From: a virus
Lineage: Duplodnaviria; Heunggongvirae; Uroviricota; Caudoviricetes
Strand: one strand, 5' to 3'
IMG/VR virus record: IMGVR_UViG_2718217897_000003
Length of the DNA: 16,591 nt
Positions 1-16,124 of this stretch are shown in pieces. Position 1 is the first letter of the stretch; every line of letters starts with the position of its first letter. A program made the position numbers and the translations under genes. The notes under the pieces are model-generated. The model worked only from the letters and a program-made list of their open reading frames with translations. It had not been told where the DNA came from and ran no database searches.

Positions 1-900
1 TTAACGCAACAGTGGACAATCTGGTGGTAATCGACAACGCAACGCTGCCGGAAGTATTTCAATATGAAAATTTTGCCCACTCAACGGTTCGCCATCAAGA
101 TTAAAGGTGATGTCGTGTGGTGCCTGAATATCAAACCACGACGAAGCGCCTTCGATAATATTCGGGTTATCTTCGTCAGATTTTAAGGTTGATACGAGAG
201 CCGGAAGTATTTCATCGCCGGTAAAAATGCGCAGTTGCAGCAAGCCATCGTTAATTAACGCGTTCGGACACAATTGCTGACCGCCACCGGCCTGACGCCC
301 GTTACCAATACCAATGACCAGGGCGTCACCTTGCCAGTGAAAGTTTTCACCGCGGATTTCACAACGGTCCGGTTGCAGAGTATCCATGCGCATTAAGCCA
401 TGAATGATGTAAGAGACGCCACCCAGCGCGGCTTTTAATTTTTCCGGCGTTTCTGTGGTAATACGCGTCCCAAATCCGCCTGTCGCCATATTAATAAAAC
501 AGGTTTGTTTGTTGACCTGCGCCATATCTATCGCAATGGCGTTACCGGCAATTGCCAGTTTCAGCGCCTTATCCAGTGCCTCAGGAATCCCTACACTGGT
601 GGCAAAATCATTGGCGGTTCCTAATGGCAAAATTCCCAGCGCGGGTATGTCATCCCCCTCACACTGAATCAACGCCGTAGAAACTTCATTAATGGTGCCA
701 TCACCACCACCGGCAATCACCGTTGCGACGCCCAACTTCCGGGCCTCCTCTACATATCGTGCGGCATCGCCTTTCTCCCAGGTGACCCGCACATGGATCG
801 TCATTCCTTCCTCACGCAACAGCATAATTGCTTCGCGCAAGGGTAAATTGTCAGTACTTTTGCCATTAAGAATCAGTAAGCTGGCGGGAAATTCTGCCAT
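1..900 (-). CDS. yegS: Lipid kinase YegS (DAG-kinase-like catalytic domain family), host gene
   Basis: The minus ORF 1..1068 contains a 299-aa protein starting [14 protein letters not shown] at the ATG whose complement is at 898-900, with TAA stop at 1-3. It carries the GGGDGT motif ([13 protein letters not shown]) of this kinase family, and I recognise it as E. coli YegS. The 56 codons upstream in the ORF track are in-frame read-through, not protein. Confidence 0.92.
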
Positions 901-1304
901 GATCGTATGTGCCTTTATGATTGGTCTGTAGATAGTGTAGAGCAGAAAAGAAAAGGTGGAGTCAGAACAGGATGAAAGTCGGAGGATAAAAGTCAGTTCA
1001 AGTATGGAGGATTCAGTGGTTACCACCAGGAGCTTGCAATGGGGACAGCGAATACTAACGGCAGCCACCGATAAATTTCAAAAAAGAGAATATACCTAAT
1101 ATTCAACTAAACGGTGGCATCTTCAATATAATATATTAAAGCCCTCATGGAGTTACCCGGAAGGGCCTCCATGTCCGTAATTCCTACTTATGTAGGAAAT
1201 GTTGTACAGAACATTTATTATAATCCTATTCAATTATAATAATCATGCCATTATTATATTTAAACACTAGAGAGTGTCGTTGGTATTTAATGGGGGAAGG
1301 TGAG

Positions 1305-1622
1305 ATGAAAAAGATAGCTGCTATATCATTAATTAGTATTTTTATTATGTCTGGTTGTGCTGTGCATAATGATGAGACAAGTATCGGTAAATTTGGTCTT
1401 GCATATAAAAGTAATATTCAGCGTAAACTCGATAACCAATACTACACCGAAGCCGAAGCTTCTTTAGCCAGGGGTAGAATATCTGGTGCAGAAAATATAG
1501 TAAAAAATGATGCAACTCATTTCTGTGTTACTCAGGGCAAAAAAATGCAAATAGTTGAGCTGAAGACAGAAGGTGTAGGATTACATGGTGTCGCTCGTCT
1601 GACATTCAAATGTGGAGAGTGA
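1305..1622 (+). CDS. yegR: Small predicted lipoprotein YegR (105 aa), host gene divergent from yegS
   Basis: ATG at 1305 is preceded by GAAGGTGAG. The N-terminus MKKIAAISLISIFIMSGC looks like a signal peptide with a lipobox cysteine. I recall this as E. coli YegR. The ORF-track start at 1245 is an upstream in-frame extension. Confidence 0.8.
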   Translation: MKKIAAISLISIFIMSGCAVHNDETSIGKFGLAYKSNIQRKLDNQYYTEAEASLARGRISGAENIVKNDATHFCVTQGKKMQIVELKTEGVGLHGVARLTFKCGE

Positions 1623-1781
1623 GAATATTTTTTGGTAAGCGTCAAATATGCGCGTTCTGGCTGTGCGTAGCCGGAACCTGTGGGAGCACGATGCCGATAA
1701 GTGAAAGGCATCGTGCTATGAAGGAGGATTCTATCGATGTGGTCAATGGAAGACGGTTACCAGAGATAGGGCTTATGCATA

Positions 1782-1808
1782 AAAAAATAAGCCCGTGTAA
1801 GGGATATT
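1782..1808. other. Prophage attL core (P2-type att core; identical to the 3' terminator end of the cyaR sRNA gene)
   Basis: AAAAAATAAGCCCGTGTAAGGGA matches the P2 att core as I recall it and the reverse complement of the cyaR 3' end. Sequence to the right diverges from cyaR and leads into int, so this is the phage-derived duplicate, not a complete cyaR. Confidence 0.7.
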
Positions 1809-1887
1809 TAGGGTGTCACCAGTAGGGGCTTTCAACGGTACAATGCGGGTTTGAGCGGCATAAATTACCACTGAAAGCCCTTAAACG

Positions 1888-2901
1888 TTACTCTACTGTG
1901 GACACTGTGTGGACACTCTCGGCCTCAGTACCACCTCTTAGCGGATTAAGAGAAATGGCGTCCTGAAGGTACTCTGGCGCAAAATGAGCGTAAACCATAG
2001 TTTGCTCAATCCGCGTGTGACCTAGTATCCGTTGTAGCGTGATAATACTTCCTCCATTAATCATGAAATGAGTGGCAAAGCTGTGCCTTAGTGCATGTGT
2101 GGCTTGCCCCGTTGGCAAATCCGGTTTTATTGCTTTCATTGTTCGTCTGAAGCGAGGGTAATCAGCATCAGGGAATAAAAAACCTCGTTTGTTATCCGCG
2201 ATCATTTTGGCAACAGCCTCTGAGATCGGGACGGTGCGTGGTTTGTTTGTTTTCGTTTTAACAAACGTGACGCGGTTATGGATGATATTTTCTGCTTTCA
2301 AACGAGCTGCTTCTCCCCAACGTGCTCCTGTACTCAGGCAAAGAATCGCAATCTTTTTATTGTCGCCGTCAAGTGCTGCAAGCAGTAAGGCAATTTCTTC
2401 CTGTGTGAGATAGCCTGTTTCTGGTTTTTCCTCCTTAAGCCTCTTTGTCCCTCTGATAGGGTGCTCACCAAAGAATAACTCCGCTTCAATCAGGGCTGTA
2501 AACATGCCGCTAATACATGTTAAATCACGATTGATACTCGAAGGTTTAATACCCTGACTTCTTCGGGTGGCGCAGTACTGGCTGATAAGGGATTTCGTGA
2601 TTTGAAATGCGCATGGGTCATTCGTTATTTTTGTGAAGATTTCAATTTTTCCAAGATTAGATTTCCCATGCTCTTCGTGTTTACCCTTTAAATCCCACCA
2701 GATCTGTGTCAGTTCCGACAGACGTCGTTTGTCTGTTGGTTTTGATAGCCATTCTTTATTGTGGTGGTTGTACAACGTGTATTTTTCGAAAGCGACAGCT
2801 TCGCTTTTCTTATCAAACTTCCTACGGATGCGTTTTCCATTACGTCCAGTAGGGCGGATGTCCACTTCATATCGACCATCATCGAGTTTTTTGATTGCCA
2901 T
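1888..2901 (-). CDS. int: P2-type tyrosine integrase (337 aa)
   Basis: Protein MAIKKLDDGRYEVDIRPTGRNGKRIRRKF ... HALRHSFATHFMINGGSIITLQRILGHTRIEQTMVYAHF carries the R..H-x-x-R..Y tyrosine recombinase motifs. GGAGGG lies upstream of the ATG (complement at 2899-2901); stop complement at 1888-1890. It sits next to the att core. Confidence 0.95.
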   Translation of the reverse strand: MAIKKLDDGRYEVDIRPTGRNGKRIRRKFDKKSEAVAFEKYTLYNHHNKEWLSKPTDKRRLSELTQIWWDLKGKHEEHGKSNLGKIEIFTKITNDPCAFQITKSLISQYCATRRSQGIKPSSINRDLTCISGMFTALIEAELFFGEHPIRGTKRLKEEKPETGYLTQEEIALLLAALDGDNKKIAILCLSTGARWGEAARLKAENIIHNRVTFVKTKTNKPRTVPISEAVAKMIADNKRGFLFPDADYPRFRRTMKAIKPDLPTGQATHALRHSFATHFMINGGSIITLQRILGHTRIEQTMVYAHFAPEYLQDAISLNPLRGGTEAESVHTVSTVE

Positions 2902-3016
2902 CAGAAAACCCTCCGAGTGGTACTTTTTTTTGCTACTACTAATCGCTTTTTTCGTGGTGGCTGAAATTTAGCCACCAATAGTAGGCACTTGTGATGAATA
3001 TATTCACGATAAATTG

Positions 3017-3316
3017 TTAACCAGTCTTTTGACCGGAGTGGGGCGACGTTGTTTCGTTTTGCCCAAAGTGTGCGAGAGCGGGCGCAATTTGCCCGGCTTC
3101 TGGAGCTACCTGATCAGTCATGAACCACAAAGTATATTTAGTAAATCTAGGATGTTGTAAGACCTTCATTATGGCTTCAACTCCAGCGTTTTTTGACCGG
3201 CTCTCATAGCTCGAAAGTGAGCTGTAGGCTACACCAGTTAATTCACTGAATTCTTTACGGTTTAACCTTTCAGATTCACGGATTAGCTTCAACTTCTCCG
3301 AAACGTCTATTGACAT
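3017..3316 (-). CDS. C: Immunity repressor, P2 C-like (99 aa)
   Basis: Protein MSIDVSEKLKLIRESERLNRKEFSELTGVAYSSLSSYE ... FTKYTLWFMTDQVAPEAGQIAPALAHFGQNETTSPHSGQKTG. The C-terminal half resembles P2 repressor C as I recall it, and the N-terminal half is helix-turn-helix-like. It is divergent from cox, as in the P2 switch. The ORF-track start at 3388 is an upstream extension. Confidence 0.85.
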   Translation of the reverse strand: MSIDVSEKLKLIRESERLNRKEFSELTGVAYSSLSSYESRSKNAGVEAIMKVLQHPRFTKYTLWFMTDQVAPEAGQIAPALAHFGQNETTSPHSGQKTG

Positions 3317-3393
3317 AATTACTCCGATTGCGTAATTTCTTGCTGATAGTGTGAAATGTTGTGCTTCTGGAGTTATCCTTTTAGGCAATAATT

Positions 3394-3412
3394 AGCCATT
3401 AGGAGCCATTAG
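3394..3412. promoter_or_regulatory. Candidate repressor operator: tandem direct repeat AGCCATTAG x2 with 10-bp period in the C/cox divergent promoter region
   Basis: AGCCATTAG occurs at 3394-3402 and 3404-3412, between the divergent C and cox starts. P2-type repressors bind direct-repeat operators; the assignment is by position and repeat structure only. Confidence 0.4.
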
Positions 3413-3437
3413 AAGCACTAAGGGAGAATCGTAGCAG

Positions 3438-3713
3438 ATGAATAGACAGCTTGTAAGCGTGACTGATGCCGTGCCTTATCAGGAGTTTGCAAAACTCATT
3501 GGTAAAACTCCAAGAGCTGTAAGGGGCATGATTGAGAAAGGGAAATTACCAGTTATTGAGATTACTGACCCTCAGTCAGTATCGGGGCGTGCTGGTGAAT
3601 ATTGGGTATACCTTCCGGCATGGAATAACGGACTAAAACTGGCTTATGAAAGCCGTCCTAAAGAGATTCGTGACGGCTGGTTGATGTGGTTAGGTCTCGG
3701 TGAACCACGTTAA
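3438..3713 (+). CDS. cox: Cox (early-operon repressor/excisionase, 91 aa)
   Basis: Protein ... PYQEFAKLIGKTPRAVRGMIEKGKLPVIEITDPQSVSGRAGEYWVYLPAWNNGLKLAYESRPKEIRDGWLMWLGLGEPR closely matches P2 Cox as I recall it. First gene of the rightward early operon. Confidence 0.9.
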   Translation: MNRQLVSVTDAVPYQEFAKLIGKTPRAVRGMIEKGKLPVIEITDPQSVSGRAGEYWVYLPAWNNGLKLAYESRPKEIRDGWLMWLGLGEPR

Positions 3714-3723
3714 GGAGAACCGT

Positions 3724-3894
3724 ATGAATGAGCCTCGTTGTATTGCTCAGTTATTGCGTAACGAAAGCCCTAGGGCGATTGACTTCACCATCACCCACGG
3801 TAAGGGGCGTAAGGGAATCATTATCCGCACCAAAAAACAGAGTCCGTTAAAAAAGGCTCTGACCTTTCTGAAAAGCCGGAGGGTCTGGAAATGA
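3724..3894 (+). CDS. Small early protein, P2 orf78 position (56 aa)
   Basis: ATG at 3724 with GGAG 9 nt upstream; stop overlaps the B start (ATGA at 3891-3894). Called by position in the P2 early operon. Confidence 0.55.
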   Translation: MNEPRCIAQLLRNESPRAIDFTITHGKGRKGIIIRTKKQSPLKKALTFLKSRRVWK

Positions 3895-4391
3895 CAGTGA
3901 TGACGCTCAATCTCGTTGAAAAACAGCCAGCAGCTATGCGCCGGATAATTGGTAAGCATCTGGCCGTCCCTCGCTGGCAGGAGACATGCGATTATTATAA
4001 TCAGATGATGGAACGCGAACGGCTAACGGTTTGCTTCCATGCGCAGTTAAAACAGCGTCACGCAACGATGCGTTTTGAAGAAATGAACGACGTCGAACGT
4101 GAACGGCTGGTTTGTGCAATTGATGAATTGCGTGGGGCATTCTCAAAACGCCGTCAGGTTGGCGCAAGTGAGTATGCATATATTAGTTTTTTAACAGTCA
4201 GTCAGCGTCGTACTTTATTTATGCATGCCGGATTGACTGAAAAAGAATTCAACCAGCCATACTGGCGAATTAATGAAGAATCATGTTACTGGCGTGATGC
4301 TTTATTCCGTGCATTACGTGAATTATTCAGCCTGTTTGAGTATGCACCGACAATTCTGACGTCGGTAAAACCAGAGCAATATCTGCATTAA
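3891..4391 (+). CDS. B: Replication protein B (helicase-loader-like, 166 aa)
   Basis: 166-aa product MTVMTLNLVEKQPAAMRRIIGKHLAVPRWQETCDYYNQMMERERL..., matching P2 gpB in size, position and, as I recall it, sequence. Confidence 0.88.
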   Translation: MTVMTLNLVEKQPAAMRRIIGKHLAVPRWQETCDYYNQMMERERLTVCFHAQLKQRHATMRFEEMNDVERERLVCAIDELRGAFSKRRQVGASEYAYISFLTVSQRRTLFMHAGLTEKEFNQPYWRINEESCYWRDALFRALRELFSLFEYAPTILTSVKPEQYLH

Positions 4392-4454
4392 ATAATTAAC
4401 CAGAGTTTTTAATGCACTTAATCGTGCGGGGCTTCTTTTTGCCTGGAGAAAGTC

Positions 4455-4679
4455 ATGCATACAGTTTCTGAAAACAAGTGCGGTAAATACGCATTACTGC
4501 TGCAACAGGCCAGAGCCGAAGCACATGCCGACGCAGCGACACGCTTTTCTTCTCATCTTGACGCCATGATTCGCCATATCACAAAGGCGGAGTTATCCCG
4601 CGTGGAGATAGTCGAGCTGCTCAGTCAGGAGTCGGAAAAATTTCACAATATCGGATTGTCTCGCGGGGAGGTGCTTTGA
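4455..4679 (+). CDS. Hypothetical early protein, P2 orf80 position (74 aa)
   Basis: ATG at 4455; stop overlaps the next start (TGATG). Conserved position between B and A. Confidence 0.6.
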
Positions 4680-4978
4680 TGTCCTGTTCTCATTCAGTTG
4701 TATTACTGAATAACGCCTTAAAAATCGCCGTTATGAAAAATGGCGATTTGTCTCTTATTCAACTTTGCCTTGATAAAGAAAAACGCGACATAACTGAATC
4801 TGTTATCGCGATTTATCAGAATGAATTAAACCTCCTGTCTGATGTGGTCAATTTACTTGTTAAACGCGCTGTATTCCACAAGCAAATTTCCTCAGTGGAT
4901 GAACTGACAAAATTAACGACAGAACTTGCCAGTTATTGCGCTGATGTATCCAGGAAACTTAACGATAAAAGGAGCTGA
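4679..4978 (+). CDS. Hypothetical early protein, P2 orf81 position (99 aa)
   Basis: ATG at 4679 overlaps the upstream stop; the ORF-track start at 4676 is a TTG one codon earlier. AAAAGGAG near its 3' end serves the next gene. Confidence 0.6.
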   Translation: MSCSHSVVLLNNALKIAVMKNGDLSLIQLCLDKEKRDITESVIAIYQNELNLLSDVVNLLVKRAVFHKQISSVDELTKLTTELASYCADVSRKLNDKRS

Positions 4979-4980
4979 TA

Positions 4981-5205
4981 ATGCCGGACAACGTAGATTT
5001 TATTCAGGAACAACAGGCTGAATTACTGGAGCGCCAGATTAACGCGGCAAGGGTAAAACATTGCGGTGCTTCTGCGCTGGTTTGCGAAGAGTGTAACGCG
5101 CCAATACCTGCTGCCCGTCGTGCGGCTTACCCGTCAGCCACGCGTTGTGTTTCCTGTCAGTCAGTCTTTGAAGCAAAAAACAAACATTACCGGAGAACGG
5201 CATGA
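4981..5205 (+). CDS. DksA/TraR-type C4 zinc-finger protein, P2 orf82 position (74 aa)
   Basis: AAAGGAG precedes the ATG at 4981. Four cysteines in CxxC ... CxxC arrangement (HCGASALVCEECNAPIPAARRAAYPSATRCVSCQ). Confidence 0.75.
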   Translation: MPDNVDFIQEQQAELLERQINAARVKHCGASALVCEECNAPIPAARRAAYPSATRCVSCQSVFEAKNKHYRRTA

Positions 5206-5477
5206 GTATTCGTATTGAAATTGGCGAACGTTATGTCGTTACCAGTGACAGCTTTCAGTTTATTCTCCACGAGAAAAAGAGAGCGGAAAGCGGTAAAAAC
5301 GCCGGTCAGGAATGGCTGGCGGTGGTTGGTTATTACCCGAAATTAAGCCAGCTCGTTTCCGGCCTGATGCATCACGATATTCTTACCGGAAGCGCAAAGT
5401 CTTTTGCTGATTTAAACGCGCAGGTTGAGCAACTCAGCAAGCGTTGTTCAGAGGCTTTTGGCTCATATGGCCGTTAA
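5202..5477 (+). CDS. Hypothetical early protein, P2 orf83 position (91 aa)
   Basis: ATGA overlap with the orf82 stop; its 3' end overlaps the A start by 11 nt. Confidence 0.7.
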   Translation: MSIRIEIGERYVVTSDSFQFILHEKKRAESGKNAGQEWLAVVGYYPKLSQLVSGLMHHDILTGSAKSFADLNAQVEQLSKRCSEAFGSYGR

Positions 5478-7749
5478 AGCCTCCGGGCGTTTTGTCCCTC
5501 CGTCAGCATTTGCCGCAGGCACCGGTAAGACGTTTACCGGTGCTTATGCATGGAACGCGCCACGCGAGGCCGTCGGGCGCGAAAGACCCCTTACACGTGA
5601 CGAGATGCGTCAGGTGCAAGGTGTTTTATCCACGATTAACCGCCTGCCTTACTTTTTGCGCTCGCTGTTTACTTCACACTATGACTACATCCGGCGCAAT
5701 AAAAGCCCGGTGCACGGGTTTTATTTCCTCACATCCACTTTTCAGCGTCGTTTATGGCCGCGCATTGAGCGTGTGAATCAGCGCCATGAAATGAACACCG
5801 ACGCGTCGTTGCTGTTTCTGGCAGAGCGTGACCACTATGCGCGCCTGCCGGGAATGAATGACAAGGAGCTGAAAAAGTTTGCCGCCCGTATCTCATCGCA
5901 GCTTTTCATGATGTATGAGGAACTCAGCGATGCCTGGGTGGATGCACATGGCGAAAAAGAATCGCTGTTTACGGATGAGGCGCAGGCTCACCTCTATGGT
6001 CATGTTGCTGGCGCTGCACGTGCTTTCAATATTTCCCCGCTTTACTGGAAAAAATACCGTAAAGGACAGATGACCACGAGGCAGGCATATTCTGCCATTG
6101 CCCGTCTGTTTAACGATGAGTGGTGGACTCATCAGCTCAAAGGCCAGCGTATGCGCTGGCATGAGGCGTTACTGATTGCTGTCGGGGAGGTCAATAAAGA
6201 CCGTTCTCCTTATGCCAGTAAACATGCCATTCGTGATGTGCGTGCACGCCGCCAGGCAAATCTGGAATTTCTTAAATCGTGTGATCTCGAAAACAGGGAA
6301 ACCGGCGAGCGCATCGACCTTATCAGTAAGGTGATGGGCAGTATTTCTAATCCTGAAATTCGCCGGATGGAGCTGATGAACACCATTGCCGGTATTGAGC
6401 GTTACGCCGCAGCAGAGGGTGATGTGGGGATGTTTATCACGCTGACCGCGCCGTCAAAGTATCACCCGACACGTCAGGTTGGAAAAGGCGAAAGTAAAAC
6501 CGTCCAGCTAAATCACGGCTGGAACGATGAGGCATTTAATCCAAAGGATGCGCAGCGTTATCTCTGCCGTATCTGGAGCCTGATGCGCACGGCATTCAAG
6601 GATAATGATTTACAGGTCTACGGTTTGCGTGTCGTCGAGCCACATCACGACGGAACGCCGCACTGGCATATGATGCTTTTTTGTAATCCGCGCCAGCGTA
6701 ACCAGATTATCGAAATCATGCGTCGCTATGCGCTCAAAGAGGATGGCGACGAAAGAGGAGCCGCGCGAAACCGTTTTCAGGCAAAACACCTTAATCGGGG
6801 CGGTGCTGCGGGGTATATCGCGAAATACATCTCAAAAAACATCGACGGCTATGCACTGGATGGTCAGCTCGATAACGATACCGGCAGACCTCTGAAAGAT
6901 ACTGCCGCGGCTGTTACTGCATGGGCGTCAACGTGGCGCATCCCGCAATTTAAAACGGTTGGTCTGCCGACAATGGGGGCTTACCGTGAACTACGCAAAT
7001 TGCCTCGCGGCGTCAGCATTGCTGATGAGTTTGACGAACGCGTCGAGGCTGCACGCGCTGCCGCAGACAGTGGCGATTTTGCGTTGTATATCAGTGCGCA
7101 GGGTGGGGCAAATGTTCCGCGCGATTGCCAGACTGTCAGAGTCGCCCGTAGCCCGTCGGATGAAGTTAACGAGTACGAGGAAGAAGTCGAGAGAGTGGTC
7201 GGCATTTACGCGCCGCATCTCGGCGCGCGTCATATTCATATCACCAGAACGACGGACTGGCGCATTGTGCCGAAAGTTCCGGTCGTGGAGCCTTTGACTT
7301 TAAAAAGCGGCATCGCCGCGCCTCGGAGTCCTGTCAATAACTGTGGAAAGCTCACCGGTGGTGATACTTCGTTATCGGCTCCCACACCGACTGAGCATGC
7401 TGCAGCGGTGTTAAATTTTATAGATGAAGGGATTCTAAGTTGGACCGAGCCAGGCATTATGAAGGTACTTAGAGACTTATTGAGTAATGAACTGAAATGC
7501 AGTAATCGTTCACAGCAGAGCTTTACTCCTTTCAATGGTCGAAGCTACTTTCCTGCCCCATCCGCCCGGTTGACAAGGCAGGAGAGAAAGACTATCCCGA
7601 AAATTAAGGTTCTTCTTGCACAAAGTGACATTCAGGCTAGTTATTGGGAGCTTGAAGCTCTCGCTCGCGGAGCTGTTTTGGATTTTGGGCATAAGCGTTT
7701 TAAATTTGATACCGATATCGACTTTTTTGACAGACAGCGTGAGTGGTAG
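5467..7749 (+). CDS. A: Replication initiation protein A (rolling-circle initiator, 760 aa)
   Basis: Protein starts MAVKASGRFVPPSAFAAGTGKTFTGAYAWNAPREAVGRERPLTRDEMRQ at the ATG at 5467 and carries an HxH-like motif (TPHWHMMLF) and a tyrosine-rich GYIAKYISKN region typical of gpA-family initiators. The ORF-track start at 5425 is an extension. The last 110 codons or so are AT-richer than the rest. Confidence 0.92.
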   Translation: MAVKASGRFVPPSAFAAGTGKTFTGAYAWNAPREAVGRERPLTRDEMRQVQGVLSTINRLPYFLRSLFTSHYDYIRRNKSPVHGFYFLTSTFQRRLWPRIERVNQRHEMNTDASLLFLAERDHYARLPGMNDKELKKFAARISSQLFMMYEELSDAWVDAHGEKESLFTDEAQAHLYGHVAGAARAFNISPLYWKKYRKGQMTTRQAYSAIARLFNDEWWTHQLKGQRMRWHEALLIAVGEVNKDRSPYASKHAIRDVRARRQANLEFLKSCDLENRETGERIDLISKVMGSISNPEIRRMELMNTIAGIERYAAAEGDVGMFITLTAPSKYHPTRQVGKGESKTVQLNHGWNDEAFNPKDAQRYLCRIWSLMRTAFKDNDLQVYGLRVVEPHHDGTPHWHMMLFCNPRQRNQIIEIMRRYALKEDGDERGAARNRFQAKHLNRGGAAGYIAKYISKNIDGYALDGQLDNDTGRPLKDTAAAVTAWASTWRIPQFKTVGLPTMGAYRELRKLPRGVSIADEFDERVEAARAAADSGDFALYISAQGGANVPRDCQTVRVARSPSDEVNEYEEEVERVVGIYAPHLGARHIHITRTTDWRIVPKVPVVEPLTLKSGIAAPRSPVNNCGKLTGGDTSLSAPTPTEHAAAVLNFIDEGILSWTEPGIMKVLRDLLSNELKCSNRSQQSFTPFNGRSYFPAPSARLTRQERKTIPKIKVLLAQSDIQASYWELEALARGAVLDFGHKRFKFDTDIDFFDRQREW

Positions 7750-7784
7750 TTGAAAAAACGGTTGAACGGGGTAACAATATGTTA

Positions 7785-7814
7785 TTGTTGAGGAATTGTT
7801 TGTTATGGTTTAAT
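7785..7814 (+). promoter_or_regulatory. Candidate sigma70-like promoter for the cargo operon (-35 TTGTTG 7785-7790, -10 TTTAAT 7809-7814), overlapping a palindrome
   Basis: Hexamers with 18-bp spacing about 25 bp upstream of the 7838 ATG; palindrome AACAATA-tgt-TATTGTT at 7773-7789. Pattern match only. Confidence 0.3.
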
Positions 7815-7837
7815 TTTTATACACGGCAGAAAAGCAT

Positions 7838-9061
7838 ATGAGCATGGTTGAATGGATAAGCCACGAGAAAAAAGATAGCCTGATACTATTTGTACATGGA
7901 TTAAATGGTGGTTTGGAAACATGGAACTTTAATAAAGAAATTTCATTTCCAAAACTATTAGCAGAAGATGAAGATATTAGCAACGTATTTGATATTGCAT
8001 GTTTCAATTATTTTACTAAATTCACACAAACGTATGCTAAAACGTCAGGATTCTTGGCTCGTATTTTCTTTAAGAAAAATAAGTTAGAGAGAAATTTACC
8101 AACTGATGAAATAGCTGAGTTATTGTATACTGAGATTAGAGTAACACTAAGTGATTACTCTCGAATTATAATAATCGCCCATAGTATGGGGGGGTTAATA
8201 TCAAAAAATCTAATTCTAAAAAAAGTTGAGCATGAGGAACAATCTAATATAATTGGATTCATTTCGTTAGCAGTCCCTCACTTTGGTGCTAAATTAGCGA
8301 ATATAACTTCAATGGTATCTTCAAATGCTCAGTTAGTAGATCTTGGATTGTTAAGTGAAGCGACTGATACATTGAATAGGCGCTGGATAAATTGTAGCAA
8401 AAAACTTCCTATCACTAGATATGTTTATGGATCTCATGACACTATAGTCGATAAAAAAAGCGCATTACCGATGGATAGTGAACGACATAACTCAATTGCA
8501 GTTAATGAAGGGCATAGCTCAATTTGCAAGCCCGAAAATAGCTCGTCTACAGTGTTTGTTGCGGTAAAGCAATTTATTCAGCAGATAAATTTAGAAGCAC
8601 CCAAGAAGATTTGCGTTGAGCGTTTTTCTGATGATAAACAATATGATAATGAGTATTTCGTCTTAAAAATGATTGTCGCAGATATACATCAGGATATCGC
8701 TCTGCATGCAAAGGAATATTATTATAATGCTGAGCTTGCGAGAAATATTTTTACGAGTGATTACGATAGAAAACAACTTGGTCATTTGTATTCTAAAATA
8801 AGGGAGATTTACCAGGAAGAGTATGAGCAATACATTGCAAATTCAATTTCCCCAGATAAATTTATTGCTGCTGTTCATAGACGAATAACCCAGGAGGATA
8901 AGTCGTCGTTAGATTCTCTTATAAAAAGTTTGGAAACGATACATAAGAAAGGAATGTTGCATCAACTGGCTAACAAAAATGACAGGGATATTGTCTGGTC
9001 ATCTGAAACCAGCGTAGAAACTTTGGAGCAATTACGGCGAGGTAATCATGAAGAAAAATAA
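7838..9061 (+). CDS. Cargo protein 1: lipase-like alpha/beta serine hydrolase with C-terminal helical domain (407 aa), candidate defense effector
   Basis: AT-rich ORF. Oxyanion-hole-like HGLNGG (res 20-25), nucleophile elbow AHSMGG (Ser116, the pentapeptide of Bacillus lipase A), candidate acid Asp201 (YGSHDTIVD) and His226 (NEGHSSI), in the canonical order. The C-terminal 150 residues or so are helical and K/E-rich. The stop overlaps the next gene by 14 nt. Confidence 0.75.
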   Translation: MSMVEWISHEKKDSLILFVHGLNGGLETWNFNKEISFPKLLAEDEDISNVFDIACFNYFTKFTQTYAKTSGFLARIFFKKNKLERNLPTDEIAELLYTEIRVTLSDYSRIIIIAHSMGGLISKNLILKKVEHEEQSNIIGFISLAVPHFGAKLANITSMVSSNAQLVDLGLLSEATDTLNRRWINCSKKLPITRYVYGSHDTIVDKKSALPMDSERHNSIAVNEGHSSICKPENSSSTVFVAVKQFIQQINLEAPKKICVERFSDDKQYDNEYFVLKMIVADIHQDIALHAKEYYYNAELARNIFTSDYDRKQLGHLYSKIREIYQEEYEQYIANSISPDKFIAAVHRRITQEDKSSLDSLIKSLETIHKKGMLHQLANKNDRDIVWSSETSVETLEQLRRGNHEEK

Positions 9062-9560
9062 CTTGCCGTATATACCTCTTGATGAAGAGTATAGTTTGAA
9101 TTTTGCTATGCTTGCCATTGCTATATCTATATTATCTCATAGCAAAAAAGGAGTGTTGTCATTAGATATTAATAAAATACAAATTTTTATGTATCTGATA
9201 AAAAATCCATCAAAAATTGATTGTGCTCTTACAGTTTCGGGGAAAAAGCCTGCTTGTGTCGAGTCCCAGTTAACTTATACAATAAAGAGTTTTTCATCAA
9301 ATGTAGATATCTTATTCGACAATTCCAAAGTGAAATATCTTATAAAAATTATGTCATTGCGGGGATTGCTCTCAGCTGAGAAAAAAAATAATGAGAGTGT
9401 TAAATTATTTTTATCTGAAAAAGGTAAGGAATTTGCTAGCTCATTGACTGATGGATATTTTAAAGAAATAAAACGACTAGCCGAAGCATTGTTACCGCTA
9501 CAAGCATTGCCTACCTCTAAGTTAAACTCTGTTATAAACAAAGTCTTCAAGGAGAAATGA
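9048..9560 (+). CDS. Cargo protein 2: small 170-aa protein of unknown function, possible adaptor or kleisin-like middle component
   Basis: ATG at 9048 lies inside the 3' end of gene 1, and ATGA overlaps gene 3 at 9557-9560, indicating translational coupling in one operon. AT-rich; no motif recognised by eye. Confidence 0.7.
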   Translation: MKKNNLPYIPLDEEYSLNFAMLAIAISILSHSKKGVLSLDINKIQIFMYLIKNPSKIDCALTVSGKKPACVESQLTYTIKSFSSNVDILFDNSKVKYLIKIMSLRGLLSAEKKNNESVKLFLSEKGKEFASSLTDGYFKEIKRLAEALLPLQALPTSKLNSVINKVFKEK

Positions 9561-11527
9561 TGAAATCATATCTCAATATCAATAGTTTGATTCTTGTTGG
9601 CGTTCGTAAAAACTACGTCACTACTTTTTATAAAGGTCTCAATGTTATCTACGGAGACTCTGACACAGGTAAGTCAAGTATTCTGGAGTTTATTAATTAT
9701 CTTTTAGGTGCTAGTTCTATAGATTTAGCAGATGAAATAAAAACATCAGTAAACTATGCTGCTCTTGAAGTAGTGATCAATGATACTGTATTCACAATCG
9801 TAAGAGATATCTATGATCATAAAAAATCAATAGAAGTTTATCGTTGTAAGTTTGATGATTTACATAAACACTTTCCGAAAAAATACGCCCCTAATTATAG
9901 CCCCTTATCAAATGTTGATGGCGTTTTTTCGGAGTTTTTACTTGATAGTCTTAATTTTCCAAAAATTGAAATTAAGGTGTCTCCTTCTAAAGCACATTCA
10001 CAGATGCGCAGGTTAAGCTTTAGAAATATATATAAATTTGTTTATGTAAGTCAGGATGATATTGGTAGTAAATCATTCTTACGATTGGAGGATTGGTCCC
10101 GTTACGCATTTACGAAAGAAGTTTTTAAATACATGTTCAATGTGTTGGATGAAAGCATCGCCAGACTCCAAGGTGAAATATCTGCAAAAAGTAGTTTAGT
10201 AACGGAACTAAATAAGAAGTATCAGATAATATCTGAATTTCTTCGCGATACAGACTATGAAACAATTGAATCAATTGATGATGAGATTAATAGGATAGAT
10301 CTTATTTTAGAAGAACTTGTTGCAGGTTTGTCTGCTCTCGATAAAAATATGAAAGCGGATTCCATGCAGTATACAGAATTGAAAGATGCCCACAATTTTA
10401 TTTCGCTTAAATACAAGGAGTGCATATTAAATATTAGCACGCTTGAGGATAAGATTGATAAATATTCGCGGTTAAAAAATGACTATGATAATGATATTGA
10501 AAAACTCAAAGCGATTAAAACAGCAAATTCTCGCATTGGTGTATTGGATAAGGAAGTATTTTCCTGTCCGATCTGTGATAGCCACATTAAAATAGATGAT
10601 TCCGATTTTCCATTTGAAATTTCATCAGAAAAAGATCTTAATGAAGAGTTGAATTCACTTAGTCGACGTAGACGAAATATTAATGACATGATCTCAGAAA
10701 TGTCATTTAAATTAAAAAAAGAATCTGGTTATAAAAAAGAATTAGATGAACAACTTGACGAGTTGAGAGAGTTAATTGACGAAGAAAGCCAGTCAATGAT
10801 TACACCATTCTTGACTCAGAGAGATTTTTATATTAAAGAGATATCAAAAAACGAGAAGGTTAGGGAGCAGTTAGTAAAAGATTTGAAGGTTAGAAACCAG
10901 CAAGAGGAACTGCTTGAAAAGCATCAGGTACTGATAAAAGATATTGAAACATTAACTGAACGCTTGGATGCGTTAAAGAAAAACGCACCTAGTATGGAAG
11001 GCATTTTACAAGGTTTAGGTGATAGATTTAGTCAGTATTTGAAGGGTATTAATATCAAAAACAGAACGGGGATAAAAATCTCTGAAAGATATTACACCCC
11101 TGTTATAAGAGGAAAGGAATATTTTAAAATAACGTCCGGAGGTTTGAGAACTATTTCTTCTATTGGGTATCTTTTGTCTATTCTTGATTATGCAATAGAC
11201 CATAATGTTAACCATCCTTTACTTTTGATATTTGATACGGTTGGTAAATATTTAGGGAAACAGACCAAGGAAAAATACTCAAAAGAAACTCTTGCAGTCG
11301 AGGATGACCTTGAGGGGATGTCAGACCCGATGAAGTATCAAAATATTTATGAGCAACTATTGAATACAGTTCAAAAAGCAGAAAGAAAAAATGTTCCGTG
11401 CCAGATTATATTAGTTGATAATGATTTGCCTAATTCGTTTTCTACTGGTGAACTTTCGAATATTATCGCTCATTATAGCTCGGTTGGTGAGGATGGTTTG
11501 CCTTTAGGTTTAATTGATGACCTTTAA
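9557..11527 (+). CDS. Cargo protein 3: SMC/Rad50/SbcC-like ABC ATPase with coiled coil and CxxC hook (656 aa)
   Basis: N-terminal Walker A GDSDTGKSS (K39), Q-loop-like VSQDD (Q166), a charged heptad-rich segment of about 350 residues with a single CPIC (C337/C340) near its middle, signature-like TSGG (526-529) and Walker B-like LLLIFD (555-560). Confidence 0.8.
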   Translation: MMKSYLNINSLILVGVRKNYVTTFYKGLNVIYGDSDTGKSSILEFINYLLGASSIDLADEIKTSVNYAALEVVINDTVFTIVRDIYDHKKSIEVYRCKFDDLHKHFPKKYAPNYSPLSNVDGVFSEFLLDSLNFPKIEIKVSPSKAHSQMRRLSFRNIYKFVYVSQDDIGSKSFLRLEDWSRYAFTKEVFKYMFNVLDESIARLQGEISAKSSLVTELNKKYQIISEFLRDTDYETIESIDDEINRIDLILEELVAGLSALDKNMKADSMQYTELKDAHNFISLKYKECILNISTLEDKIDKYSRLKNDYDNDIEKLKAIKTANSRIGVLDKEVFSCPICDSHIKIDDSDFPFEISSEKDLNEELNSLSRRRRNINDMISEMSFKLKKESGYKKELDEQLDELRELIDEESQSMITPFLTQRDFYIKEISKNEKVREQLVKDLKVRNQQEELLEKHQVLIKDIETLTERLDALKKNAPSMEGILQGLGDRFSQYLKGINIKNRTGIKISERYYTPVIRGKEYFKITSGGLRTISSIGYLLSILDYAIDHNVNHPLLLIFDTVGKYLGKQTKEKYSKETLAVEDDLEGMSDPMKYQNIYEQLLNTVQKAERKNVPCQIILVDNDLPNSFSTGELSNIIAHYSSVGEDGLPLGLIDDL

Positions 11528-11655
11528 TACTATACATGCATTTTTTTGAATTAGATTGCATGTGGATAATGAGTCTATTTAGTGAAGGGAAGGTTTTGTG
11601 TGACGTGACTTTCGATAAAATTCAACCGCATTAAAACCGCCCCATGAAGCGGGCG

Positions 11656-11674
11656 GGCGAGGCGGGGAAAGCAC
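11656..11674. other. cos site (19-nt cohesive-end sequence GGCGAGGCGGGGAAAGCAC) with flanking G/T-rich repeats
   Basis: The 19-mer matches the P2 cohesive end as I recall it, lying between the end of the rightward operon and the 3' end of Q, where cos sits in a P2 prophage. G/T-rich reiterated motifs follow at about 11700-11815. Confidence 0.65.
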
Positions 11675-11815
11675 TGCGCGCTGGCGGTGGTGCTGATTTT
11701 ATTTTTTAGCGTCTCAGCGCGTCGTGATGGCGTTTAGATTGTGCGCCGGGGCGTTGGTGTGTCTGCGGGGTGTTTTGTGCGGTGGTGAGCGTGTGAGGGC
11801 GTGATGACGGGGTGT

Positions 11816-11837
11816 AAAAAAGCCGCCCGCAGGCGGC
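11816..11837 (-). terminator. Rho-independent terminator downstream of Q (minus strand)
   Basis: GCCGCC-cgca-GGCGGC hairpin at 11822-11837, preceded on the plus strand by AAAAAA (a U-run on the minus strand after the stem), immediately 3' of the Q stop at 11843-11845. Confidence 0.55.
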
Positions 11838-11842
11838 GATGT

Positions 11843-12814
11843 TCAGCCGTTGTCAGTGTCCAGTGAGTAGTTTTTAAAGCGGATGACCTCCTGACCGAGC
11901 CAGCCGTTTATCTCACGGATCCTGTCCTGTAACGGGATAAGCTCATTGCGGACAAAGACCTTTGCCACTTTCTCAATATCACCCAGCGACCCGACGTTCT
12001 CCGGCTTGCCGCCCATCAACTGAAAGGGGATGCGGTGCGCGTCCAGCAGGTCTGCGGCACTGGCTTTTTTGATATTAAAAAAATCGTCCTTCGTCGCCAC
12101 TTCACTGAGCGGGATAATTTTAATGCCGTCGGCTTTTCCCTGTGGGGCATAGAGAAACAGGTTTTTAAAGTTGTTGCGGCCTTTCGACTTCACCATGTTT
12201 TCGCGAAGCATTTCGATATCGTTGCGATCCTGCACGGCATCAGTGACGTACATGATGTATCCGGCATGTGCGCCGTTTTCGTAATACTTGCGGCGGAACA
12301 GCGTGGCCGACTCATTCAGCCAGGCAGAGTTAAGGGCGCTGAGATATTCCGGCAGGCCGTACAGCTCCTGATTAATATCGGGCTCCAGCAGGTGAAACAC
12401 GGAACCGGGCGCGAAGGCTGTCGGTTCGTTGAAGGACGGCACCCACCAGTAAACATCCTCCTCCACGCCACGGCGGGTATATTTTGCCGGTGAGGTTTCC
12501 AGTCTGATGACCTTACCGGTGGTGCTGTAACGCTTTTCCAGAAACGCATTACCGAACACCAGAAAATCCAGCACAAAGCGGCTGAAATCCTGCTGGGAAA
12601 GCCACGGGTGCGGGATAAACGTTGAAGCCAGAATATTACGTTTGACGTAAATCGGTGAGCTGTGATGCACGGCAGCACGCAGACTTTTTGCCAGACCGGT
12701 AAAGCTGACCGGTGGCTCATACCATCTGCCGTTACTGATGCATTCGACGTAATCCAGAATGTCACGGCGGTCGAGTACCGGCACTGGCTCACCATGCTGA
12801 AAAATCAGCTTCAT
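11843..12814 (-). CDS. Q: Portal protein Q (323 aa as encoded here; 5' end abuts a deletion junction, possibly N-terminally truncated)
   Basis: Minus-strand ORF with host-like GC content in the expected place and orientation next to cos. From memory P2 Q is about 344 aa, so about 20 codons may be missing. Sequence directly upstream of its ATG is lysB-derived rather than gene P. Confidence 0.8.
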   Translation of the reverse strand: MKLIFQHGEPVPVLDRRDILDYVECISNGRWYEPPVSFTGLAKSLRAAVHHSSPIYVKRNILASTFIPHPWLSQQDFSRFVLDFLVFGNAFLEKRYSTTGKVIRLETSPAKYTRRGVEEDVYWWVPSFNEPTAFAPGSVFHLLEPDINQELYGLPEYLSALNSAWLNESATLFRRKYYENGAHAGYIMYVTDAVQDRNDIEMLRENMVKSKGRNNFKNLFLYAPQGKADGIKIIPLSEVATKDDFFNIKKASAADLLDAHRIPFQLMGGKPENVGSLGDIEKVAKVFVRNELIPLQDRIREINGWLGQEVIRFKNYSLDTDNG

Positions 12815-13075
12815 GTTGCGCTCACCAGGGCAGACAAAAACGAGCTGGCGCAGGTGGCACTGCGTCAGGAACTGGAAAACGCCGCGAAGCGTGAAGCTCA
12901 GCGCGAGAAAACCATCACGAGATTACTCAATGAAAACGAAGATTTCCGCCGCTGGTATGGCGCTGACCTGCCTGATGCTGTGCGCCGGTTGCACCAGCGC
13001 CCCGCCTGCACCGACGCCAGTGATTGTCCACAACGCCTGCCCGAAAGTGAGTCTTTGCCCGATGCCGGGCAGTGA
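12815..13075 (+). pseudogene. lysB: lysB remnant (Rz-like spanin, 3' portion only)
   Basis: The frame ending at 13075 encodes ...ALTRADKNELAQVALRQELENAAKREAQREKTITRLLNENEDFRRWYGADLPDAVRRLHQRPACTDASDCPQRLPESESLPDAGQ, but upstream of about 12815 the same frame is antisense to Q. There is no lysB start or N-terminal transmembrane region. The 5' boundary is approximate (plus or minus 30 nt). Confidence 0.6.
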
Positions 13076-13220
13076 CCCGCAGACGAACGGCGATTTAAGT
13101 GCCGATATCCGGCAGCTTGAGAACGCGCTGGCACGCTGTGCCAGCCAGGTAAAAATGATTAAACACTGTCAGGACGAAAACGATGCTCAAACCCGACAGC
13201 CTGCGCAGGGCGCTGACTGA
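12930..13220 (+). CDS. lysC: LysC (Rz1-like outer-membrane lipoprotein spanin, 96 aa), embedded in the lysB frame region
   Basis: MKTKISAAGMALTCLMLCAGCTS has a signal peptide and lipobox Cys; the rest is proline-rich. Embedded out of frame in lysB as in P2. Likely non-functional without full LysB. Confidence 0.7.
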   Translation: MKTKISAAGMALTCLMLCAGCTSAPPAPTPVIVHNACPKVSLCPMPGSDPQTNGDLSADIRQLENALARCASQVKMIKHCQDENDAQTRQPAQGAD

Positions 13221-13650
13221 TGCCGTCACGGTGCTGAAAACTAACCCCGATATGCTTCGGATATTCGTGGATAACGGGAGTATTGCCTCCACACTGGCGA
13301 CGTCGCTGTCATTCGAAAAGCGTTACACGCTCAATGTCATTGTGACCGATTTTACCGGTGATTTTGACCTGCTCATCGTGCCGGTGCTGGCGTGGCTGCG
13401 GGAAAATCAGCCCGACATCATGACCACCGACGAAGGCCAGAAAAAAGGCTTCACGTTTTATGCAGACATCAACAATGACAGCAGCTTTGATATCAGTATC
13501 AGCCTGATGCTGACCGAACGCACGCTGGTCAGTGAGGTGGGCGGCGCGCTGCATGTGAAGAATATCCCGGAACCCCCGCCGCCGGAGCCGGTCACCCGCC
13601 CGATGGAGCTTTATATCAATGGCGAACTGGTGAGTAAGTGGGATGAATGA
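13183..13650 (+). CDS. R: Tail completion protein R (155 aa)
   Basis: MLKPDSLRRALTDAVTVLKTNPDMLRIFVDNGS... matches P2 gpR in sequence as I recall it, and in size and position. Confidence 0.9.
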   Translation: MLKPDSLRRALTDAVTVLKTNPDMLRIFVDNGSIASTLATSLSFEKRYTLNVIVTDFTGDFDLLIVPVLAWLRENQPDIMTTDEGQKKGFTFYADINNDSSFDISISLMLTERTLVSEVGGALHVKNIPEPPPPEPVTRPMELYINGELVSKWDE

Positions 13651-14095
13651 GTTTAAGCGTTTTGAAGACCGGCTGACCGGGCTGATTGAATCGCTGTCAC
13701 CGTCAGGGCGTCGGCGACTGAGCGCCGAACTGGCGAAACGTCTGCGTCAGAGTCAGCAGCGTCGGGTGATGGCACAGAAAGCCCCGGACGGCACCCCCTA
13801 CGCGCCACGTCAGCAGCAGAGCGCCAGAAAAAAGACCGGTCGCGTTAAGCGAAAAATGTTTGCGAAACTTATTACCAGTCGTTTTTTGCATATCCGCGCC
13901 AGCCCGGAACAGGCATCAATGGAATTTTACGGCGGGAAGTCGCCGAAAATCGCCAGTGTGCATCAGTTCGGTCTGTCGGAAGAAACCCGGAAAGACGGTA
14001 AGAAAATTGATTATCCGGCGCGTCCTCTGCTCGGCTTTACCGGTGAGGATGTGCAGATGATTGAAGAGATTATCCTGGCTCACCTTGAGCGTTAG
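13643..14095 (+). CDS. S: Tail completion protein S (150 aa)
   Basis: MNEFKRFEDRLTGLIESLSPSGRRRLSAELAKRLRQSQQRRV... matches P2 gpS as I recall it; start overlaps the R stop. Confidence 0.9.
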   Translation: MNEFKRFEDRLTGLIESLSPSGRRRLSAELAKRLRQSQQRRVMAQKAPDGTPYAPRQQQSARKKTGRVKRKMFAKLITSRFLHIRASPEQASMEFYGGKSPKIASVHQFGLSEETRKDGKKIDYPARPLLGFTGEDVQMIEEIILAHLER

Positions 14096-14125
14096 TTTTA
14101 TCCAGGCAGAGGCTGATGCGCAATT

Positions 14126-14160
14126 AAACATTGAGCGGCCATGCTGGTCGCTCAATGTTT
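14126..14160. terminator. Perfect 12-bp-stem hairpin between convergent S and the membrane-protein gene; candidate bidirectional terminator
   Basis: AAACATTGAGCG-(11 nt loop)-CGCTCAATGTTT, 30 nt after the S stop and just before the minus-strand gene's stop. Only a short U-run (the stem's own TTT). Confidence 0.45.
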
Positions 14161-14166
14161 AGAGGC

Positions 14167-14952
14167 TTATGAGTGATTTTTATTTGATGCTTTGTATTCT
14201 ACAACCTTCTTATTGGCGTAAAGGAATTTTGTATATGACAGGAATATAACCAGACCTGAAATGAAATAGATGAGGGATATTATTAATAATGCTTTTTTTT
14301 GGCTGTTATTATCTTTAATTTCCTGACTTAACCATTCCGAGTCCTCCTCGTTTAGCTGTAAGAGCTTATTGCAGGCGATCTCAGGAAGTGTGTCTTTTAT
14401 AAATATGTTTCGTAGCCTCTTGCAATCGGCAAGGCTATAAGTTTTATTGAATTCAACTGTTTTATTGTTGAAGGATAAAAGAACTTTGTCACTATAAACA
14501 TAGTACATCATATTTTTATATGGTATGCCTATGGCATCTCTTACTATAGCGGATTGTTTGTTGTGTATATAACATGCGAAGAGAATATAAATAATGCTGG
14601 ACAGAATTACAATTATTGTTTTAATTATGTGTGGTGGTTTTGTTATGTCACCCCAGAAGCGAGTAAGAAAAAAATACGATGTTTTTAGTTTTCCATCAAT
14701 CAGCCCCTGCTGTATCATTCTCACATCTTCGATGCCTGATACATTGATTCCGTTAATTATTTTAAATAGTTGAATGTCGCGCCATTTTTTGTCGAGCATT
14801 TTTAACTTTCTGTCTGAATACTCAAAATTGAAATGATGTGCAATAAACCTCATAAGATTACTTTTACCAAAGGTAATAAATGTTAATGCTATTAATAAAA
14901 ATAGATACAAAGAGATAAACCACCACGCATTAGTCACATTATCACTGAACAT
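14167..14952 (-). CDS. AT-rich cargo gene: 261-aa integral membrane protein (about 3 predicted TM helices), unknown function, in the S-V slot (P2 orf30 position)
   Basis: ATG complement at 14950-14952 with GAGGAG 8 nt upstream on the minus strand. Hydrophobic segments WWFISLYLFLLIALTFITF, IIVILSSIIYILFACYI and ALLIISLIYFISGLVIFLSY. Opposite strand to the flanking tail genes. Confidence 0.8.
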   Translation of the reverse strand: MFSDNVTNAWWFISLYLFLLIALTFITFGKSNLMRFIAHHFNFEYSDRKLKMLDKKWRDIQLFKIINGINVSGIEDVRMIQQGLIDGKLKTSYFFLTRFWGDITKPPHIIKTIIVILSSIIYILFACYIHNKQSAIVRDAIGIPYKNMMYYVYSDKVLLSFNNKTVEFNKTYSLADCKRLRNIFIKDTLPEIACNKLLQLNEEDSEWLSQEIKDNNSQKKALLIISLIYFISGLVIFLSYTKFLYANKKVVEYKASNKNHS

Positions 14953-15035
14953 TACGCTCTCCTCGAATGTTGTATGGTCGTTCTACAAATGAATCCAGAT
15001 AGCATAACTTTTATATATTGTGCAATCTCACACGC

Positions 15036-15671
15036 ATGAACACTCTCGCAAATATTCAGGAACTCGCGCGCGCACTGCGCAACATGATTCGTACCGGCCT
15101 TGTCGTCGAAACCAACCTTAAAGCCGGTCGCTGCCGTGTGCAGACCGGTGGCATGTGCACTGACTGGCTTCAGTGGCTGACCCATCGTGCCGGACGTTCG
15201 CGCACATGGTGGGCACCTTCCGTGGGGGAACAGGTGCTGATTCTGGCTGTGGGCGGTGAACTCGACACGGCGTTCGTTCTGCCGGGGATTTATTCCGGCG
15301 ATAACCCCGCGCCGTCTGCGTCGGCGGATGCCCTGCATATCCGTTTCCCTGACGGGGCGGTGATTGAGTATGAACCCGAAACCAGTGCACTCACGGTAAG
15401 CGGAATTAAAACGGCCAGCGTGACGGCTTCTGATTCTGTTACTGCCACGGTGCCGGTGGTCATGGTGAAAGCATCAACCCGCGTCACCCTGGACACACCG
15501 GAGGTGGTTTGCACCAACAGGCTGATTACCGGCACGCTGGAAGTGCAGAAGGGCGGGACGATGCGCGGCAACATTGAACACACCGGCGGTGAACTCTCAT
15601 CAAACGGTAAGGTACTGCATACCCATAAACACCCCGGCGACAGCGGCGGCACAACCGGGAGCCCTCTATGA
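15036..15671 (+). CDS. V: Baseplate spike protein V (211 aa)
   Basis: MNTLANIQELARALRNMIRTGLVVETNLKAGRCRVQTGG... matches P2 gpV as I recall it. The ORF-track start at 15018 is a TTG extension; ATG at 15036. Confidence 0.92.
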   Translation: MNTLANIQELARALRNMIRTGLVVETNLKAGRCRVQTGGMCTDWLQWLTHRAGRSRTWWAPSVGEQVLILAVGGELDTAFVLPGIYSGDNPAPSASADALHIRFPDGAVIEYEPETSALTVSGIKTASVTASDSVTATVPVVMVKASTRVTLDTPEVVCTNRLITGTLEVQKGGTMRGNIEHTGGELSSNGKVLHTHKHPGDSGGTTGSPL

Positions 15672-16015
15672 CAGCGCGTTATCTCGGAATGAATTGCAGT
15701 GATGGCCTGACTGTCACTGACCTTGAGCATATCAGCCAGAGTATCGGCGATATCCTGCGCACACCGGTCGGCTCGCGGGTGATGCGTCGTGATTACGGCT
15801 CGTTGCTGGCGTCAATGATTGACCAGCCGCAGACCCCGGCGCTTGAGTTGCAGATTAAGGTCGCCTGTTACATGGCGGTGCTGAAATGGGAACCCCGCGT
15901 CACCCTGTCATCCGTCACCACTGAGCGCAGTTTTGACGGGCGAATGACGGTCACCTTAACCGGCCAGCACAACGACACCGGCCAGCCACTTTCGTTAACC
16001 ATCCCTGTGAGTTGA
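15668..16015 (+). CDS. W: Baseplate wedge protein W (gp25-like, 115 aa)
   Basis: MTARYLGMNCSDGLTVTDLEHISQSIGDILRTPVGSRVMRRDYGS... matches P2 gpW as I recall it; ATGA overlap with the V stop. Confidence 0.92.
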   Translation: MTARYLGMNCSDGLTVTDLEHISQSIGDILRTPVGSRVMRRDYGSLLASMIDQPQTPALELQIKVACYMAVLKWEPRVTLSSVTTERSFDGRMTVTLTGQHNDTGQPLSLTIPVS

Positions 16016-16019
16016 AACC

Positions 16020-16124
16020 ATGCCGATTATCGACCTGAACCAGCTACCCGCACCGGATGTGGTCGAGGAGCTGGACTTTGAAACCATTCTCGCCGAACGC
16101 AAGGCGACACTGATTTCCCTTTAC
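16020..16124 (+). pseudogene. J: Baseplate protein J, 5' fragment (first 35 codons only)
   Basis: MPIIDLNQLPAPDVVEELDFETILAERKATLISLY matches the gpJ N-terminus as I recall it. The frame then reads TPKTRNRKSRR and stops, and downstream sequence belongs to another gene in another frame. Confidence 0.75.

Follow-up and report, generated by a model that had tools for sequence, protein, structure and literature searches.

A probable single deletion between short direct repeats joins the portal gene Q to lysB in a P2-like prophage remnant related to that of Escherichia coli B

Introduction

What brings the portal gene Q of a P2-like prophage directly against the middle of the spanin gene lysB? This arrangement is found in a viral DNA record of 16,591 nucleotides (IMG/VR record IMGVR_UViG_2718217897_000003), the whole of which is referred to here as the window. 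An earlier note on this DNA had read the place as an internal deletion in a P2-like prophage, fusing Q to the middle of lysB somewhere within 12780-12830 and taking away terminase, capsid and lysis genes, and had proposed as a check an alignment to P2 together with a comparison of prophages at the same locus. Here, we report these comparisons. The alignment to P2 places the joint at 12789-12794, the comparison with P2 and with the intact prophage of strain KOr021 bears out the deletion and its gene content, and the two together locate the breakpoints and a 6-bp repeat, TCACCA, that they share. The joint very probably goes back to one internal deletion of 6,928 bp between two TCACCA repeats, in a P2-like prophage of an E. 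coli B-related strain.

Results

The window holds a P2-like prophage at a P2 attachment locus

The window carries a P2-like prophage on its plus strand, in prophage order, together with the host genes yegS and yegR (Table 1). The insertion site, yegS/yegR-yegQ, is a known P2 attachment locus, at which the intact prophages of KOr021 and TOE3 and the K-12 remnant PR-X also lie. All blocks shared with P2 are colinear and 95.6-98.2% identical to it, which places the element among the P2-like (Peduovirus) prophages. P2 and the intact prophages at this locus share with it the att core, int, cos, R, S, orf30, V and W. According to RefSeq, the three cargo genes between A and cos encode an ABC-three component (ABC-3C) system with proteins of 407 aa (DUF676/PGAP1-like plus CTD8), 170 aa (MC4) and 655/656 aa (AAA/ABC ATPase). 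This operon, which is also present in the intact prophages of TOE3 and of O157:H7 strains, is presumably anti-phage cargo in a P2 hot spot. The cos packaging site is kept, just downstream of the stop codon of the truncated portal gene (Q′).

Table 1. Features of the window around the Q′-lysB′ joint, and joints in related P2-like remnants. Positions are those of the window unless another record is named; primes mark truncated genes.
Feature	Position	Strand	Remarks
att core	from 1782		matches P2
int	1888-2901	minus	
C, cox, B, orf80-83, A	after int; A ends at 7749		
ABC-three component system cargo	7838-11527		three genes; low GC (0.32-0.35); in place of P2 orf91/tin/old, between A and cos
cos	11656-11674		19-nt cohesive-end sequence GGCGAGGCGGGGAAAGCAC, matches P2 cosL/cosR; identical to P2, flanks conserved
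Q′ portal-like ORF	11843-12814	minus	native Q part 11843-12794
Q′ native remnant	11843-12794	minus	codons 29-344 and stop; 5′ 28 codons and promoter pP deleted
Upstream extension of lysB′ frame	12662-12788	plus	from GTG 12662; 42 codons of antisense Q
Q′-lysB′ joint (probable deletion joint)	12789-12794		sole remaining copy of 6-bp direct repeat TCACCA
lysB′ (3′ part of Rz-like spanin gene)	12789-13075	plus	residues 48-141 retained; N-terminal 46-47 residues lost
Junction-made leader of 323-aa ORF	12795-12814	minus	ATG 12814; 7 codons running into the microhomology; antisense lysB
lysC (Rz1-like lipoprotein spanin)	12930-13220	plus	full length, 96 aa; PF23793 LysC
R (tail completion)	13183-13650	plus	full length, 155 aa; PF06891
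S (tail completion / virion morphogenesis)	13643-14095	plus	full length, 150 aa
O-operon terminator	14125-14161		after S; inverted repeat I5
orf30-like gene	14167-14952	minus	261 aa; GC ~0.33-0.38; intact between S and V
J′-D′ joint	16121-16124		J codon ~35 fused to last 156 codons of D; 4-bp microhomology TTAC
REL606 Q′-S′ joint			homology AAG, or GGGAA(A)G
REL606 FII′-D′ joint			ATAC within a 13/15 homeologous stretch
ST410-type remnant, Q′-lysA joint	cpxP-fieF; L003 12081-12089 (NZ_CP033401.1, many ST410-like genomes)		9-bp overlap

Distal to the orf30-like gene follow V, with its upstream promoter pV retained, W, a stub of J and the 3′ end of D. The orf30-like protein has no Pfam match. 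It is identical in REL606 and KOr021 (WP_000490543.1), and TOE3 has no gene between S and V. At the other end of the element, the C-cox intergenic and immunity region (3147-3459) has no nucleotide match to P2, with flanks that are 96-98% identical, and the element would therefore be heteroimmune to P2; the related remnant of E. coli B we take to be the donor of the immunity region of P2 Hy dis. When the whole window was scanned against Rfam, no RNA family reached its gathering score.

Q runs into lysB through a 6-bp direct repeat

Window 11656-12794 aligns to P2 (NC_001895) 1-1138, where Q is the complement of 187-1221, and window 12789-16124 aligns to P2 8061-11396, where lysB occupies 7922-8347. 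The two alignments overlap by the six bases TCACCA; in a base-by-base three-way display, the window agrees with the Q side as far as ...GGCTCACCA and with the lysB side once TCACCATGCTG... is reached. P2 1139-8060 is absent from the window. The joint is clean, the Q sequence running straight into lysB with no filler bases. At the joint itself we found no IS sequence, target duplication or att-like sequence, and a repeat scan of 11500-14200 returned short chance repeats only, with nothing IS-like and no longer homology that would account for the joint. An adjacent deletion mediated by an IS element was considered and rejected, since neither an IS nor a terminal repeat abuts the joint.

As undeleted reference for the joint we used KOr021, a close relative of the window and not its true ancestor. 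Its intact P2-like prophage, at the same yegQ site, shares 99.66% identity with the window on the Q side and 99.64% from lysB to J, and several of its late proteins recur unchanged in E. coli B. TOE3 was dropped for this purpose because KOr021 is closer (99.6% versus 95.9% on the lysB side). KOr021 carries TCACCA twice (L013 5520-5525 and 12448-12453), in codons 28-30 of Q and codons 47-49 of lysB, and the sequences around the two copies are unrelated. The window equals KOr021 minus exactly 6,928 bp and one repeat copy, and not minus the 8-9 kb that the earlier note had estimated. P2 and the intact prophages at this locus (KOr021, TOE3 and O157:H7) are colinear with the window on both sides of the joint, at 95.6-99.7% nucleotide identity, and hold both repeat copies and the block from 5′ Q to 5′ lysB, whereas the window has one copy and no block.

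The lost block comprises codons 1-28 of Q (83 nt), all of P, O, N, M, L, X, Y, K and lysA, and the first 139 nt of lysB (codons 1-46/47). The divergent late promoters pP/pO with their Ogr site (P2 3016-3127) went with it. The list of lost genes in the earlier note thus stands from P to K and for the 5′ part of lysB, and had left out lysA. Among the products of the lost genes are the large terminase (P), scaffold (O), capsid (N), small terminase (M), holin (Y) and endolysin (K).

The microhomology exceeds what random breakpoints give

Could the six shared bases be a coincidence? Short identities arise by chance, and such a joint might then stem from homology-free joining, or from an IS or site-specific recombinase that has since departed. 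Among 200,000 random breakpoint pairs drawn in the KOr021 prophage, 56% had no microhomology and only 0.19% had six or more bases (P = 0.0019). The Q-side copy in the intact relative TOE3 reads TCGCCA, a synonymous change at one base with which the perfect microhomology would fall to 2-3 bp, and this lends the coincidence some room; the 5′ segment of Q in the window, TCACCA included, is matched at 100% by at least 12 complete genomes. Short homology was present at every scar examined in this prophage family (Table 1), which argues against coincidence, as does the joint's freedom from any IS remnant, target duplication or att-like sequence. To our knowledge, moreover, E. coli has no Ku/LigD end joining, which counts against a homology-free route. 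Taken together, we consider a coincidental identity very unlikely.

The joint thus has the features of a deletion between short direct repeats: the repeat stands at both ends in the undeleted reference, one copy is kept, no filler is present and the length is beyond chance. The two TCACCA repeats in Q and lysB would have been joined with a single copy left behind, and the scar suggests a RecA-independent, short-homology illegitimate recombination, for instance replication slippage or microhomology-mediated joining. The earlier note had also proposed a microhomology-mediated deletion. The repeat at both ends in KOr021 supports that proposal; the reason given for it, that both reading frames stay readable across the junction, is no evidence for it. 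The frames are literally readable, but this is a chance property and is silent on mechanism.

The joint marks a narrow lineage

The exact 323-aa product of the Q′ frame occurs on at least 17 contigs, eight of which we examined (from at least four NCBI draft genomes and three Logan run assemblies). Across these eight independently assembled contigs the 71 nt of the joint show no difference, and the second joint of the element, J′-D′, is present in all seven that reach that far. One of them (L006; DAOETP010000010.1, GCA_029516775.1) matches the window at 100.000% identity over 14.7 kb; GCA_965266795.1 is a further carrier. The joint was not found in any of 5,426 complete RefSeq E. coli genomes, and an exact 32-mer across it has no match in GTDB species representatives or JGI metagenome contigs. 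The joint is a vertically inherited marker of a narrow lineage.

This lineage is known mainly from draft assemblies, which might raise the suspicion of a chimeric contig. However, the same joint recurs in eight contigs from different samples and pipelines, which extend up to 176 kb and reach the chromosomal flanks, the same Q′ protein, residue for residue, is on record for a contig of 4.73 Mb, and no assembler would be misled by a repeat of 6 bp. With the joint identical across independent assemblies, we rejected an assembly artefact, the probability of which is close to nil.

Equally, a distinct P2-like phage might natively carry Q next to lysB, or might have acquired this order by mosaic module exchange. 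P2-like phages are indeed mosaic at cargo hot spots, and in the window tin/old has been replaced by the ABC-3C operon. At the joint, however, both flanking genes are cut within their ORFs and no replacement sequence is present. Among 50,697 phage records searched, 103 match; the two halves are adjacent in none of them and lie as separate places ~6.9 kb apart in all 103. In the intact relatives (KOr021, TOE3 and O157:H7), too, P to lysA stand between the halves. The phage records and the intact block of KOr021 led us to reject a native order, which is hardly conceivable. The earlier note had named two findings that would speak against its reading, namely a native adjacency of Q and lysB in P2-like phages and an intact P-to-K block contiguous with the element elsewhere. 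The former is contradicted by these records, and no such block is present in the window or in two of the contigs examined (L005 and L006).

The best two-piece matches among the complete genomes turned out to be an unrelated P2 remnant of ST410-type strains, located at cpxP-fieF and with a Q′-lysA joint of its own. This is an independent defective P2-like prophage, in which a different 5′-truncated Q lies just upstream of lysA and in which A, V and FI are also truncated.

The joint creates misleading reading frames

The minus-strand ORF of 323 aa opens with seven new residues, MKLIFQH, and continues with residues 29-344 of gpQ, at 99% protein identity to P2 gpQ. The earlier note had let Q begin at 12814. 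This start does not hold, as Q has lost its native start together with codons 1-28, and ATG 12814 is a start codon only by chance, located in the antisense strand of lysB and outside native Q. Going by P2 biology, the 323-aa ‘portal’ ORF would be a non-functional chimera. On the plus strand, lysB′ is identical to P2 LysB at 92 of 95 residues over the aligned residues 47-141. The upstream extension of its frame into antisense Q is spurious and open by chance; no promoter-like site precedes its GTG.

Public records (HBH4581544.1, UniParc UPI000B03EE6F and others) name the 323-aa ORF ‘phage portal protein’ and do not mark it as partial. RefSeq marks the shorter E. coli B version of Q′ as a pseudogene. 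An unmarked chimera of this kind can mislead calls of prophage completeness, as happened in the earlier note.

The element would be unable to form particles or lyse its host

The element is not an intact, self-sufficient P2-like prophage: Q is without codons 1-28, P to lysA and pP/pO are gone, and a further joint runs from J to D. Judged from this locus, it would be unable to build heads, to cut and package DNA or to lyse the cell, because P, M, N, O, L, the N-terminus of Q, Y and K are lost, whose roles follow from established P2 genetics; a second P2-like prophage elsewhere in the same genome might complement these defects. The loss of pP/pO and the Ogr site leaves lysC, R and S without their operon promoter, and these genes are probably transcriptionally orphaned; neither a sigma-70-like promoter nor a TGT-N12-ACA Ogr-type site was found in 11500-13300 above shuffled expectation. 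All early genes, int, the ABC-3C operon, ogr and cos are intact.

The element is a sister of the defective P2 prophage of E. coli B

Of the 5,426 complete E. coli genomes, those of E. coli B strains (REL606, ATCC 11303 and others) match the window best, at 99.95-100% identity in three pieces that cover 92% of it. The element is a sister of the defective P2 prophage of E. coli B, which lies at the same yegS/yegR-yegQ site and carries the same ABC-3C cargo; head, packaging and lysis genes are missing in both. The host sequence agrees, as the yegQ flank is 99.93% identical to REL606, 99.26% to K-12 and 97.3% to KOr021. We found no usable published description of the structure of the E. coli B remnant in the open literature.

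The two sisters differ in their deletions. Over window 1-12601 and 13934-16124 they are 99.95% identical, whereas window 12602-13933, the joint included, is taken out in E. coli B by a larger Q′-S′ deletion that leaves it without lysB′, lysC, R and the 5′ part of S. Conversely, E. coli B keeps J, I, H, a glycosyltransferase gene, FI and FII′, all of which are gone from the window through its J′-D′ joint. That joint took away everything from the remainder of J to the greater part of D. On the right it breaks off only ~20 bp into the stretch that E. coli B retains as D′; the FII′-D′ joint of E. coli B is a different one. The Q′-S′ deletion of E. coli B may have been nested on the joint of the window or may have arisen independently from an intact ancestor; both courses need an equal number of events, and no intermediate genome was found that would order the two.

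Point differences are few. Only four substitutions (2754, 5761, 9143 and 9889) separate the window from REL606 in 12.6 kb, all of them C in the window and T in REL606, and with TOE3 and P2 as outgroup three of the four are C>T changes derived in REL606. In addition, REL606 has a 2-nt insertion (TG) at window 9195 (L001 ~12195-12200) that splits the MC4 gene into ORFs of 153 nt and 366 nt, whereas the window and TOE3 have an intact 170-aa MC4 gene. This frameshift may have left E. coli B with an inactive ABC-3C system.

Discussion

Was the loss of this block selected? A deletion that removes the lethal lysis module and the head genes could be adaptive, leaving ~15.2 kb as a domesticated defence island or as a helper-dependent ‘mini-P2’. 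The intact early genes, int, ABC-3C operon and cos would fit such a course, and three independent P2-like remnants (the window, E. coli B and the ST410 type) have each lost P through K from a point inside 5′ Q. There is also a precedent: Sp13 of E. coli O157:H7 Sakai, a defective P2-like prophage without head and packaging genes, indeed without most morphogenetic genes, proved in experiments able to excise and replicate and to become packaged (Asadulghani et al, 2009; PMC2669165). However, the lineages compared here differ by at most four SNPs in 12.6 kb, too few to test selection, and tail genes have been deleted as well, in patterns that differ among sister lineages, which resembles unselected deletional decay. 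The joint is also rare, being found on 10-17 contigs and in no complete RefSeq genome, and no genes for size determination or helper exploitation (sid, psu, delta, epsilon) were seen. We therefore consider an adaptive deletion unlikely.

A more specific form of this idea is that the remnant, at ~45% of the length of P2, is packaged by a superinfecting P2-like phage and so spreads its defence cargo. If so, it would excise, replicate and be packaged, for instance as a ~30.5-kb dimer, with the help of the cos, int/cox, C, B, A and ogr that it keeps, and the loss of P through lysA would be the step that turned a phage into a satellite-like hitch-hiker. Apart from the ABC-3C cargo, the element contains ordinary P2 genes throughout, with cos intact and no satellite-type genes annotated; in Sp13, by contrast, a P4 epsilon-like gene is present (Asadulghani et al, 2009; PMC2669165). 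On balance, such a helper-dependent existence seems quite unlikely to us.

In K-12, the cryptic prophage PR-X lies at the same attachment site as the element, next to yegQ/cyaR, and is likewise a P2 remnant made by deletion, but it retains only ~0.63 kb, namely ogrK and the 219-bp D′ fragment yegZ (MG1655, L014 4184-4821). The window, unlike PR-X, still has int, the genes for immunity and replication, and cos among the ~15 kb that it retains. PR-X is the end stage and the most decayed member of the series at this site.

In conclusion, the scar is an ordinary case of a known kind of prophage decay, and its value lies mainly in annotation and illustration, as a base-exact example of how such decay proceeds stepwise. 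A single attachment site presents intact prophages (KOr021, TOE3 and O157:H7), the remnant of the window with its two deletions, the differently deleted remnant of E. coli B and the 0.6-kb PR-X stub of K-12. The window and E. coli B have diverged by so few substitutions and yet carry different large deletions, which indicates that deletions outpace point mutation in this cryptic prophage.
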